NCBI GenBank assembly: GCA_964476045.1
Contig: CAYYYJ010000001.1
Span: 50,733-114,732 of the forward strand
Length of the DNA stretch: 64,000 nt
Direction: 5' to 3'
DNA from: an uncultured archaeon
GTDB taxonomy: Archaea > Aenigmatarchaeota > Aenigmatarchaeia > QMZP01 > JACQNV01
Shown: piece after piece, positions 14,342-16,503 of the stretch
Position numbering within the stretch: position 1 is the stretch's first letter
Layout of the letters: each line of letters opens with the position of its first letter
Made by a program: the position numbers and the translations under genes
The notes under the pieces: model-generated
Seen by the model: the letters and a program-made list of their open reading frames with translations, nothing else
The model's database searches: none
What the model was told of the DNA's origin: nothing

Positions 14342-14893
14342 TTAAAGGAGCTGCCTCGTTATCTCGTAAAAAGTAATGTCCCCTTCATTGTCAACTATAG
14401 CCCAGAGCATGGTAGCCCTGATGGAGTGAGCTAACCTGACAGCCCGCGAGAGCTCTTGAAAACTGCAAGAATAATCTTCTGGGACGCAATATACAATCCA
14501 TCTTGTGTGCTCTGATGGGGCTTTTGGCCCCTTCTTAACAAGAACACCTCTTTGGTAAACGCGGAAATCGCAACCGAATTTGAAGCCTGTTTTGACAACT
14601 AAACCCCTTCCTCTGAGATCCCTGTAAACTGCGTATCTCTCGTGGAATCTTTTGTCCAATTCCGAGCAATATTCAAAAAATGCCTTAAAGCTCATCTTAG
14701 TTTTGCCTTTTTTTACAGAGAGTTTTTTCTTCTCAACTAAATAAGCAGCTTCGACCAGAGCGAGCTCGAGCCTGTCATCTATCCTTTTCCCATAGCTTCT
14801 TTGCTCTAGCTCATCAAAGCCTTTTGAGATAAATAACTTGTTTTCTAAAAGGGTCGCTTCTGGAACCTTTCTGATCTCGTTTTCGGTTGCCAT
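14342..14893 (-). CDS. endA: tRNA-splicing endonuclease (short, alpha-type)
   Basis: Catalytic C-terminal domain YAVYRDLRGRGLVVKTGFKFGCDFRVY; 183 aa. Confidence 0.85.
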   Translation of the reverse strand: MATENEIRKVPEATLLENKLFISKGFDELEQRSYGKRIDDRLELALVEAAYLVEKKKLSVKKGKTKMSFKAFFEYCSELDKRFHERYAVYRDLRGRGLVVKTGFKFGCDFRVYQRGVLVKKGPKAPSEHTRWIVYCVPEDYSCSFQELSRAVRLAHSIRATMLWAIVDNEGDITFYEITRQLL

Positions 14894-14902
14894 ATTACAC
14901 TA

Positions 14903-14913
14903 TTAAATATATA
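14903..14913 (+). promoter_or_regulatory. candidate TATA box (TTAAATATATA) for the tRNA-Asn/tRNA-Phe transcription unit
   Basis: AT-rich TATA-like element 32-42 nt upstream of the tRNA-Asn 5' end. Confidence 0.35.
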
Positions 14914-14944
14914 CTATCTAATTCTATAGATAACTTGCTTAAAA

Positions 14945-15264
14945 GCCTCGGTAGCTCAGCCATATACCCTCTTTCTTTCGAGGAAGGTTGGAAGTTGATT
15001 TGAGACCAATTGGAAAACAAATCAACTTCGTCCCTTTAAGAAAGAGCCTTATAACCCAGAAAGAAAGACGTTACAAGTGGATTATAAGTATGGAGCAACA
15101 GGTAGAGCGATCGACTGTTAATCGATAGGTCGGAGGTTCGAGTGTCTAGCCTTTCTTTAGAAAAGAAAGGCTACAGTACCCAAAGAAACTAGAATTCTTT
15201 GGCACTCGTTGAGATTCCAAAACTCAGAACCCAGAACTCAAGACTGATATTCCTCCCCGAGGCG
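14945..15264 (+). tRNA. tRNA-Asn (anticodon GTT) with two large introns at non-canonical positions (D-loop about 138 nt; T-loop about 108 nt)
   Basis: Acceptor GCCTCGG pairs perfectly with CCGAGGC 313 nt downstream. D-arm: GCTC AGCC | intron | GGTAGAGC. Anticodon arm ATCGA-CTGTTAA-TCGAT is contiguous. Variable loop AGGTC. T-stem GGAGG-TTCGAGT | intron | CCTCC. Discriminator G; no encoded CCA. Confidence 0.75.
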
Positions 15265-15274
15265 CTGAAGAGTC

Positions 15275-15313
15275 GAAACTGATTTTAAAGCAATTGCATC
15301 GAAAATCAGTTTC
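15275..15313 (+). repeat. perfect 12-bp inverted repeat hairpin in the tRNA-Asn/tRNA-Phe spacer
   Basis: GAAACTGATTTT ... AAAATCAGTTTC with a 15-nt loop, between the two tRNA genes. Confidence 0.5.
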
Positions 15314-15323
15314 CGTCTTTCAT

Positions 15324-15475
15324 GGGGGTGTAGCTCAGCACCCTTTTCCTAAAAGCGTGCACGGAAAAGGATGAGCATTGGGAGAGCACACGGCTGAAGA
15401 CGCACCTTTCTTTAAAGAAAGCTGCACCAAAGAATAGACACCGTGGTGTCGGGTGTTCGATCCACCCCACCCCCA
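15324..15475 (+). tRNA. tRNA-Phe (anticodon GAA) with two introns (D-loop about 37 nt; canonical 37/38 about 39 nt)
   Basis: Acceptor GGGGGTG/CACCCCC, discriminator A. D-arm: GCTC AGC | intron | ATTGGGAGAGC. Anticodon arm CACGG-CTGAAGA | intron | CCGTG. Variable loop GTGTC. T-arm GGGTG-TTCGATC-CACCC. Confidence 0.8.
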
Positions 15476-15487
15476 CTTTTTATTTTT

Positions 15488-15775
15488 ATGAAAGAGGTTA
15501 AATCGCCTTTACCAGAAAAGCACATTTTCGTGTGCGTGAACGAACGAGATAGTTCAAAAGATCACTGCTCGAAGGTAGGCGGACTCGAGATCTTTCACAA
15601 AATAAAGGCAAATGTAATGTCGAATGGCCTCGCTTCAAGGGTCTGGGTCACCAAGACAAAATGCCTTGGCTTCTGCAATCCTGTTGGGACTACAATTGCT
15701 GTTTACCCAGAACAGAAGATTTTTACGGAAGTAGGGGTTGAGGAAGTTGATAAATTACTGGAAGATATTTTATAG
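15488..15775 (+). CDS. thioredoxin-like [2Fe-2S] ferredoxin
   Basis: Cys pattern FVCVNERDSSKDHC ... TKCLGFC typical of thioredoxin-like Fd/NuoE family; start moved to MKEVKS to avoid overlap with tRNA-Phe. Confidence 0.6.
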   Translation: MKEVKSPLPEKHIFVCVNERDSSKDHCSKVGGLEIFHKIKANVMSNGLASRVWVTKTKCLGFCNPVGTTIAVYPEQKIFTEVGVEEVDKLLEDIL

Positions 15776-15780
15776 CATTT

Positions 15781-16503
15781 ATGAAATTGATTTCTCTGAA
15801 CATCTGGGGAGGCAAGGTTTTTGGTCCACTGGCTTCTTTCTTGAAAGAACAGGCGTCAACAACAGATATTTTTTGTTTTCAGGAAGTTTTTCAAGAAGCA
15901 AATAAAGCTGTCTATGAAGGCGCGAGGCTGAACATCTTTTCTGAAATAAGCCAGATCATACCAGAGTCTAAAGGATATTTTTCTCCGTGCCAGGACAATT
16001 TCGGCTTAGGTTGTTTTGTAAAAAATAGAAAAGCTGAAGTGGAGGATGCTTTTGTTTATGGAGAGTTGAATAGTATGGTCGAGGGCAATACTAGCACTCT
16101 TCCAAGAAATATCCAAAGTATAAGGATACCGGGTCTCGACAAAAAATTTACTGTTTTTAATTACCATGGTATCTGGAGGCCAGGATCAAAAGACGATGAC
16201 GCTGATAGGATAGCAACTTCAGAAAAAATAAAAAGTATCATGAAGAAAAGTTCCGGGGAGAAAATCCTGTGCGGCGACTTTAATTTGCTGCCAGATACAA
16301 AGAGTTTAGGAATTCTCGAAGACGGGATGACGAATTTAATTAAACAATTCAATATAAAATCTACAAGAAGCACGCTCTATACAAAGGAGCACAAATTTGC
16401 AGATTACATGATTGTTTCAAAAGGCGTCAAGGTTAAGGATTACAAGGTTCCGGAAATAACAGTTTCAGACCACTTGCCGATGATATTGGAGTTTGAGTTA
16501 TGA
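15781..16503 (+). CDS. endonuclease/exonuclease/phosphatase (EEP) family protein
   Basis: N-terminal LNIWGG, internal CGDFNLLPD, C-terminal SDHLPMILEF conserved EEP motifs. Confidence 0.7.
   Translation: MKLISLNIWGGKVFGPLASFLKEQASTTDIFCFQEVFQEANKAVYEGARLNIFSEISQIIPESKGYFSPCQDNFGLGCFVKNRKAEVEDAFVYGELNSMVEGNTSTLPRNIQSIRIPGLDKKFTVFNYHGIWRPGSKDDDADRIATSEKIKSIMKKSSGEKILCGDFNLLPDTKSLGILEDGMTNLIKQFNIKSTRSTLYTKEHKFADYMIVSKGVKVKDYKVPEITVSDHLPMILEFEL

Follow-up and report, generated by a model that had tools for sequence, protein, structure and literature searches.

The question raised by the locus examined here is whether positions 14945 to 15475 of a 64,000-nt stretch of DNA from an uncultured DPANN archaeon (Aenigmatarchaeota) hold two working tRNA genes, each broken by two introns, which annotation tools do not see. 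This stretch, the whole of the DNA analyzed, is termed the window, and all coordinates given for it are counted from its first letter; it is archaeal, and ribosomal protein S17e is among its encoded proteins. In our judgment it is very probable that the region encodes a functional tRNA-Asn(GUU) and a functional tRNA-Phe(GAA), each with two protein-spliced introns, of which three in all interrupt unusual positions, and the genes stand next to endA, which encodes the tRNA-splicing endonuclease.

Two interrupted tRNA genes

Neither ARAGORN, run with and without its intron option, nor Rfam at its gathering score reported a tRNA in the 64-kb window, and Rfam also returned nothing at E<=1. When the 621-nt region 14900-15520 was searched alone, Rfam gave one partial tRNA match of 20 bits at 15091-15154, which is the middle exon of tRNA-Asn. 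Lowering the ARAGORN score threshold and allowing long introns produced 134 calls across the window, all of them noise, and the setting was dropped as a detector. When the two strands of the window were scanned for canonical T-arms, there was a single match, that of tRNA-Phe, which has a perfectly matching acceptor stem upstream, and the joined exons of tRNA-Asn match intron-less Asn genes that adjoin endA in relatives, D-loop AGCAGGTA included; these two results together exclude chance as the source of the genes. No other tRNA was found in the 64 kb by ARAGORN, Rfam or the T-arm scan, which interrupted T-arms would escape. The exons and introns are as follows.

14945-14959, plus strand: tRNA-Asn(GUU) exon 1, tRNA positions 1-15, from the joined-exon call
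14960-15098, plus strand: tRNA-Asn intron 1, 139 nt, D-loop 15/16, relaxed bulge-helix-bulge (BHB) motif, from the BHB scan and intron-less D-loops
15099-15142, plus strand: tRNA-Asn exon 2, positions 16-59, from the joined-exon call and the partial Rfam tRNA match
15143-15250, plus strand: tRNA-Asn intron 2, 108 nt, T-loop 59/60, near-strict hBHBh' motif, from the BHB scan and intact T-loops
15251-15264, plus strand: tRNA-Asn exon 3, positions 60-73, discriminator G73, from the joined-exon call
15324-15338, plus strand: tRNA-Phe(GAA) exon 1, positions 1-15, from the joined-exon call
15339-15378, plus strand: tRNA-Phe intron 1, 40 nt, D-loop 15/16, relaxed BHB motif, from the BHB scan and intron-less D-loops
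15379-15399, plus strand: tRNA-Phe exon 2, positions 16-37, from the joined-exon call
15400-15439, plus strand: tRNA-Phe intron 2, 40 nt, canonical site 37/38, relaxed motif, from the BHB scan and intact anticodon loops
15440-15475, plus strand: tRNA-Phe exon 3, positions 38-73, discriminator A73, from the joined-exon call and the T-arm scan

The genes measure 320 nt (tRNA-Asn) and 152 nt (tRNA-Phe), and from the joined exons ARAGORN calls a tRNA-Asn(gtt) of 73 nt and a tRNA-Phe(gaa) of 72 nt, both regular cloverleaves. The expected identity elements are in place, with G73 in tRNA-Asn and both A73 and G20 in tRNA-Phe, and the spliced tRNA-Phe has a D-loop of 7 nt, AGUGGGA; CCA is encoded in neither gene. 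Split or permuted tRNA genes are ruled out, all exons being collinear, on one strand and within the 320 and 152 nt. As for the introns themselves, the Haloferax volcanii tRNA-Trp intron carries a C/D-box guide RNA and resembles the two longer window introns in being a long (>100 nt) archaeal tRNA intron at a BHB motif, but it differs from them in that neither C or D boxes nor an Rfam family was found in the window introns. A guide RNA in the long introns was accordingly rejected, the C box being absent and Rfam giving no match, and no function for the excised introns is indicated by Rfam or by inspection of the sequence. Rfam recognized no ribozyme core: at E<=1 nothing in the window matched, and at E<=10 the region 14900-15520 yielded only the partial tRNA match and miRNA noise.

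Junctions fixed by intron-less relatives

Relatives were gathered mainly through endA. A scan of GTDB genomes by EndA alignment left 80 loci, mainly from Aenigmatarchaeota, to which L083-L086 were added through the closest EndA homologues (80-86% identity) and L087-L092 through a degenerate exon pattern that recovered seven loci in all from JGI metagenomes; the seventh, L093, was set aside as an unrelated, bacterial-looking tRNA-Asn. An exact search of the JGI metagenomes with the middle exon of the window tRNA-Asn gave no match. Locus L017 (JADFIX010000162.1) carries an Aenigmatarchaeota-type endA (66% identity) on a contig of a metagenome-assembled genome (MAG) labelled Planctomycetota, which probably reflects misbinning of the public entry.

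Each of the four window junctions is matched by an intron-less orthologue at the syntenic locus. The Asn D-loop GCTCAGCAGGTAGAGC is uninterrupted in L012, L024, L083, L084, L085 and L091, and the Asn T-loop GGTTCGAGTCCTC in L004, L084, L085 and L091; the Phe D-loop GCTCAGTGGGAGAGC (AGTGGGA) runs without a break in L003, L004, L083 and L085, as does the Phe anticodon loop in L092 and L091, and in L091 both tRNA-Asn and tRNA-Phe are free of introns. Our spliced alignment had placed the Phe D-loop boundary so as to give a 38-nt intron, which was overruled by the BHB rule together with the intron-less orthologues in favor of 40 nt. For three of the window introns, all but that at Asn 15/16, independent assemblies also supply orthologues, with 96-100% identity across the stretches that match: L083 has an intron of 96% identity at Asn 59/60, and the Phe 15/16 and 37/38 introns are each orthologous to introns of L088. 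Two independent Logan assemblies of the same organism (ERR4904390 and ERR4904391; loci L001 and L002) end at window position 14992, 33 nt into the Asn D-loop intron, possibly owing to a repeat, strain variation or low coverage; the same contigs confirm Asn exon 1 and the first 33 nt of the 139-nt intron.

Splice motifs at the four sites

For the scan, the BHB motif was given its standard geometry, with a central helix H of 4 bp, bulges of 3 nt in which the cut follows nucleotide two, and further helices on the outer (h) and inner (h2) sides; this rule picks the same junctions that the comparison with relatives demands. A foldable BHB-like motif is present at all four window sites, and a strict motif at none. 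Asn 59/60 is near-strict, with three of four pairs in H, an h of 5 bp formed by the T-stem and an h2 of 4 bp (GUCU/AGAC). Asn 15/16 is relaxed, with H complete (4/4, D-stem GCUC at 10-13 with intronic GAGC), no h and an h2 of 5 bp, and Phe 15/16 is relaxed as well, with the same complete H (GCUC/GAGC), no h and an h2 made of 1 bp, a mismatch and 8 bp (CCUUUUCC/GGAAAAGG). At Phe 37/38, also relaxed, H has three of four pairs, h is the 5-bp anticodon stem and h2 is missing; at its 3' site a bulge of 3 nt separates the anticodon stem from a 3-bp helix, and its 5' site lies in a larger loop beside a hairpin.

In the relatives, 80 introns comprise 29% strict hBHBh', 9% near-strict and 34% relaxed motifs (71% BHB-like), against 0.1% strict, 0.5% near-strict and 5.7% relaxed (6% BHB-like) at 16,000 length-matched random sites. 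Pairs of the 59/60 motif are also kept through change, G57 standing opposite U in the window and opposite C in L003 and L026, A57 standing opposite U in all Phe genes with a 59/60 intron, and the first inner pair being G:C in the window and A:U in L003. The inner helix of the D-loop motif is likewise kept in different sequence, CCUUUUCC/GGAAAAGG in the window versus UUCUUUC/GAAAGAG in L092. Folds constrained to the BHB motifs lie 1.4-4.6 kcal/mol above the minimum free energy (1.4 for Asn 15/16), and the unconstrained fold of pre-tRNA-Phe already holds the D-loop motif.

From these motifs we propose that in the precursor each intron would pair with a neighboring exon to give a bulge-helix-bulge or bulge-helix-loop motif. 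At both D-loop sites the intronic GAGC would mimic the 3' strand of the D-stem and pair with GCUC (10-13); at the T-loop site the 3' end of the intron would pair with U55-G57 atop the T-stem, and at 37/38 the 3' end of the intron would pair with positions 32-34 atop the anticodon stem. By analogy with established archaeal tRNA splicing, the neighboring EndA would then cut within the bulges, after the second bulge nucleotide, and an RtcB-type ligase would join the exons and circularize the introns.

An earlier note, made on this DNA from its letters, had proposed two introns in each gene, D-loop and T-loop introns among them, and its proposal is borne out by junctions that agree with the intron-less orthologues. 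The exon pieces that it named are present where it placed them, in genes of the 320 and 152 nt it gave, and the mature tRNAs are below 80 nt as it expected. Its intron sizes of about 138, 108, 37 and 39 nt come within 3 nt of ours and are refined here to 139, 108, 40 and 40 nt, the Phe D-loop intron of about 37 nt having to be corrected to 40 nt at 15/16. The relaxed recognition that it anticipated fits three of the four motifs, in the BHB scan and in the constrained folds, and the folding check that it proposed finds a BHB-like motif at each of its sites.

The adjacent EndA and its altered triad

A broad-specificity enzyme would be required here, because three of the four motifs are relaxed. 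The product of endA, a protein of 183 residues (14342-14893, minus strand), carries the N- and C-terminal tRNA_int_endo domains PF02778 and PF01974 (E 1e-28 and 6e-15), has its closest named homologues in Candidatus Aenigmarchaeota/Aenigmatarchaeota of the DPANN superphylum, and aligns over its full length with the solved EndA structures 1A79, 3IEY, 4FZ2 and 5X89. An insertion (VKKGPKAPSEH) stands immediately ahead of the catalytic His129; its counterpart in the Nanoarchaeum equitans alpha subunit is PKKGKRSEREH, and it is present also in ARMAN-2 and absent from the Methanocaldococcus jannaschii enzyme 1A79; residues K120, K121, G122, P123 and K124 of the window protein align with K93, K94, G, K96 and R97 of N. 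equitans. In the latter, the specific loop comprises residues 90-98 (K93, K94, K96 and R97), holds the catalytic His and is expected to confer broad specificity (Hirata et al. 2012, PMC3488258). The loop of Nanoarchaea and ARMAN-2 has been named L3, and alpha4 EndAs with L3 in several DPANN lineages accompany more disrupted tRNA genes (Kaneta et al. 2018, PMC5829648). From our alignment we infer that the window loop is the L3 of that paper, whose text gives no loop coordinates, and this Nanoarchaeum-type basic loop with the catalytic His would, following the literature, supply the broad specificity that the introns call for.

The active site of the window protein departs from the canonical one. 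Tyr113 and His129 are present, and the position of the triad Lys (K156 in M. jannaschii, K334 in Methanopyrus kandleri, within the motif AHSVRK) is occupied by Ala160 (AHSIRAT). All 34 family members in the alignment have Ala there, and every EndA of the Aenigmatarchaeota type that was examined (~65 loci) has either Ala or Thr. Ala or Thr at this position always accompanies the extended KKGPK loop, and the EndAs without the loop all keep the Lys; among 1.84 billion representatives at 50% identity, the search returned N. equitans-like proteins that have both loop and Lys and, nested among them, a GPK-loop set without Lys. Tyr113, His129 and the whole set of catalytic-domain motifs are invariant. 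The role of the triad Lys may have passed to K124, a loop Lys that is invariant and precedes the His by five residues, or to Arg159, likewise invariant.

Since the triad Lys is absent, the introns could be real and the adjacent EndA could be a partly degenerate subunit that works with a canonical paralogue encoded elsewhere, as a heteromer, or it might not be the catalyst at all. The occurrence of Ala or Thr at the Lys position in every Aenigmatarchaeota-type EndA examined would fit such a subunit, as would the alpha-beta heterotetramer through which N. equitans, with the same loop, works (PMC5829648), and two endA loci (L050 and L063) come from one MAG. However, structural beta subunits do not share the invariance of Tyr113, His129 and the catalytic-domain motifs that is seen here, the 64-kb window holds one endA and no second, and among the 80 kept loci all but one genome have a single endA locus, a count obtained with search patterns that would miss divergent paralogues. 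The exception, L050 and L063, involves two loci from the same family and may reflect a mixed bin. We therefore regard a degenerate or bystander EndA as improbable, the best surviving of the alternatives to the adjacent EndA acting on functional interrupted genes.

Selection on the spliced tRNAs

Relatives with differing introns allow the spliced products to be compared. Spliced alignments were made with a sequence-profile dynamic programme that is blind to base-pairing, with introns of 11-220 nt allowed, and were accepted at a score >=62, with <=4 introns and an ARAGORN call required; the noise floor, with scores up to ~60 and many false introns, was left out. Spliced in silico, the tRNA-Phe genes of L003, L083 and L085 give one and the same sequence, from which the window copy differs at pair 2:71 alone (A-U to G-C). 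Across 20 intron-bearing Asn genes, 97.4% of the cloverleaf pairs in the spliced products are standard and compensatory changes occur at 11 of 21 pairs; across 20 Phe genes, 100% are standard and 12 of 21 pairs show such changes. Controls in which the 3' partner was slid by 1-3 columns gave 30-54% pairing. The window tRNA-Asn and tRNA-Phe are under purifying selection, and they are not pseudogenes, because numerous compensatory changes have left the cloverleaf of the joined exons intact.

This bears directly on the proposal that the loci are decayed pseudogenes, broken by small mobile hairpin insertions, with working intron-less Asn and Phe genes elsewhere. Outside tRNA genes, too, the same families occur, with copies beside endA in both L083 and L003 and one that forms the Asn-Phe spacer of L091, and in this they behave like mobile elements. 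Yet the exons are under strong purifying selection across genomes in which the insertions differ, with a mature tRNA-Phe that is the same in three genomes and one compensatory pair away in the window and with 11-12 compensatory pairs in the 20 intron-bearing genes of each type; moreover, the ends of the insertions fall exactly where BHB geometry predicts, the locus is the phylum's conserved syntenic Asn-Phe-endA arrangement, and no other tRNA was detected in the 64 kb. Decay is thus very unlikely. Assembly artefacts or self-splicing (group I/II) introns have a negligible chance of accounting for the interruptions, for although the two Logan contigs stop inside the Asn D-loop intron they contain exon 1 and the start of that intron, the other three introns have their orthologues in independent assemblies, and the introns are 40-139 nt long with no Rfam group I/II match even at E<=10.

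Several observations weigh against functional genes with two protein-spliced introns each. Three of the four motifs are short of one flanking helix, no more than three of four central-helix pairs form at Asn 59/60 and Phe 37/38, and the unconstrained minimum-free-energy fold of pre-tRNA-Asn favors a competing 6-bp helix in the T-loop intron, a helix that a substitution disrupts in the L083 intron of 96% identity. The activity of EndA is not assured, because the canonical triad Lys is gone, and intron-less paralogues and a second EndA subunit were judged within the 64-kb window alone. Finally, the spliced alignments come from our own profile-guided procedure, which could favor tRNA-like exon choices; it makes no use of pairing information, however.

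Intron families and turnover

Intron content differs widely among close relatives. For tRNA-Asn, the window has introns at 15/16 and 59/60; L088 at 15/16, 23/24 and 59/60; L083 at 23/24, 30/31 and 59/60; L084 at 23/24 and 30/31; L085 at 30/31; L004 and L092 at 15/16; and L091 none. For tRNA-Phe, the window and L088 have introns at 15/16 and 37/38, L092 at 15/16, L003 has three, L083, L004, L085 and L089 have four, and L091 again has none. The four-intron tRNA-Phe genes (in L083 at ~1000-1180 on the minus strand, and in L004, L085 and L089) carry introns at ~28-30, 37/38, 42-45 and 53/54, and their spliced products are identical or near-identical to the window tRNA-Phe. Phylum-wide, about half of the credible genes bear introns, at a dozen positions. 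The introns thus appear, from these comparisons, to have been gained, lost and moved unusually fast among related genomes.

Two families can be traced by homology. Family A comprises the window Phe 15/16 intron and its homologues at Asn 15/16 in L004 (0 of 2000 shuffles reach the score) and L003 (1 of 2000), together with a 39-nt copy of 92% identity that L083 carries at 1458-1496, between its endA and promoter region. In family B, the homologues of the window Asn 59/60 intron are the intron at Asn 15/16 in L092 (0 of 2000 shuffles) and the Asn-Phe spacer of L091 (1 of 2000). An intron-family copy is also found beside the endA start in L003 (~2400-2500). The families behave like small mobile hairpin elements, because their copies also sit outside tRNA genes, and the introns would accordingly represent small hairpin-rich families that move between positions and genes, with fast turnover among close relatives. 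For the 139-nt Asn D-loop intron, no relative was found in any fetched locus; its resemblance to the introns of L003 and L004 lacks significance, since ~230 of 2000 shuffles score as high, and that to the L092 intron is weak (14 of 2000).

A LAGLIDADG open reading frame (ORF) inside a tRNA intron of L085 was considered and rejected, the ORF lying downstream of tRNA-Phe on the opposite strand. Both L085 (491-1210) and L086 (145-876) have such an ORF of 239-243 residues, with a weak LAGLIDADG_3 match, between tRNA-Phe and a ferredoxin-like gene on the strand opposite to the tRNAs.

Gene order and linkage to endA

The features around the two genes are listed below.

14342-14893, minus strand: endA, tRNA-splicing endonuclease, 183 residues, Pfam PF02778 and PF01974
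14894-14944, no strand assigned: A+T-rich intergenic region between the divergent endA and tRNA-Asn, with motifs TTAAATATATA and TATAGATAA, from sequence
15265-15323, plus strand: Asn-Phe spacer, 59 nt, with a 12-bp hairpin GAAACUGAUUUU/AAAAUCAGUUUC, from sequence
15476-15487, plus strand: T-rich stretch CTTTTTATTTTT, from sequence

The intergenic region 14894-14944 is presumed to be a bidirectional archaeal promoter region, and nearly the same sequence stands upstream of tRNA-Asn in L083, L003 and L084; the stretch 15476-15487 is presumed to be the archaeal transcription terminator of the Asn-Phe unit. Between these limits the two tRNAs would probably be transcribed as one unit. The Asn-Phe spacer with its hairpin is kept in L083, L004 and L092 and measures only 2-4 nt in L003 and L085; the hairpin looks like a third insertion family.

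The earlier note had remarked on the position of the genes directly beside endA. The adjoining gene is indeed endA, as Pfam confirms, but the linkage is conserved throughout the phylum and is no peculiarity of this locus. tRNA-Asn(GTT) and tRNA-Phe(GAA) adjoin endA in most of the 80 loci, and tRNA-Phe lies upstream of endA on the same strand in 42 of the 43 loci with a credible Phe gene; in the clade of the window, the tRNA pair is divergent from endA. The endA ATG stands 1-2 nt past the 3' end of tRNA-Phe in several loci (among L005-L063, for example L024 at 2402-2503, L008, L010, L011 and L023), and because endA starts so close to the end of tRNA-Phe, the arrangement at co-directional loci suggests a tRNA-mRNA co-transcript from which 3' processing of the tRNA would release a leaderless endA mRNA.

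It is possible, although we put it forward only tentatively and think it rather unlikely, that Aenigmatarchaeota have an intron-proliferation system of their own, in which mobile hairpin introns are combined with an EndA whose active site has been rebuilt and with an endA that is co-transcribed with its substrates. If so, the elements would hop between 15/16 and 59/60, between Asn and Phe and into non-tRNA sites beside endA, reaching up to four introns in one tRNA; the rebuilt active site, with the Lys lost and K124 or Arg159 in its stead, would loosen the choice of substrate so that introns are tolerated; and in most of the phylum the shared transcript would couple the supply of EndA to the processing of the precursor.

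Relation to known systems and significance

Thermoproteales tRNA genes with multiple introns are reportedly the subject of work by Sugahara (2008) and Fujishima (2010). The window genes are like those of Thermoproteales in having protein-spliced introns with BHB or relaxed-BHB motifs at canonical and non-canonical positions, several per gene, and in the occurrence of similar introns in different tRNAs and at different positions, which points to intron transposition, with a link to a broad-specificity EndA (PMC4033280). They differ in lineage, being DPANN and not TACK, and in the EndA loop, which is Nanoarchaeum-type and not Crenarchaea-specific. The 2014 review of the multi-intron Thermoproteales genes gives introns of <100 nt and <=3 per gene (PMC4033280), unlike the 139- and 108-nt introns of the window and the four introns in tRNA-Phe of its relatives, and in the window clade the intron families also lie outside tRNA genes.

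Closer parallels are found in other DPANN, namely the alpha-beta heterotetramer of N. equitans, the epsilon2 enzyme of ARMAN-2 and the alpha4 enzymes with L3 (PMC5829648, PMC3488258, PMC3239211), which belong to the same superphylum and share the insertion before the His. There, too, a loop-bearing EndA accompanies more disrupted tRNA genes and standard tools miss full tRNA sets. The window EndA family differs from N. equitans and ARMAN-2 in lacking the triad Lys, which both keep, and the window genes differ from other disrupted DPANN tRNA genes in being collinear and not split into halves; Aenigmatarchaeota lie outside the analysis of those papers. In the Asgard lineages Atabeyarchaeia and Freyarchaeia, most tRNA genes are similarly interrupted, often at non-canonical positions and by several introns (PMC11291895), a likeness taken from their description; these belong to a different superphylum, and Asgard EndAs have the L1 (Crenarchaea-type) loop (PMC5829648). 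The statement in the earlier note that multi-intron tRNAs are known from only a few archaeal lineages has thus been overtaken, since they are now reported for Thermoproteales, ARMAN, other DPANN and Asgard (PMC4033280, PMC5829648, PMC11291895). Multi-intron archaeal tRNA genes being already known, a specialist would not be surprised by a DPANN case; our search of the literature gave no paper on tRNA introns in Aenigmatarchaeota, for which multi-intron tRNAs are apparently undescribed so far.

One consequence concerns annotation. Standard annotation finds no tRNA in the 64 kb, and therefore, without BHB-aware tools, Aenigmatarchaeota genomes will seem to lack both tRNA-Asn and tRNA-Phe. The incompleteness of tRNA sets in DPANN has been taken to point to undetected disrupted genes (PMC5829648), and tRNAs that escape detection bear on estimates of DPANN genome completeness.

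The locus also amounts to a natural experiment on the origin of archaeal tRNA introns, in that a dozen related genomes share identical or almost identical mature tRNAs and the intron sets range from none, in L091, to four. Because the mature tRNAs are near-constant, the intron sets vary and two families are traceable, gain of introns by transposition can be tested against descent by comparison. An EndA that departs from the Tyr-His-Lys triad is itself worth a biochemical test, and the fast turnover, the two traceable families and the altered active site of EndA together make the locus well suited to studies of the spread of tRNA introns in archaea.

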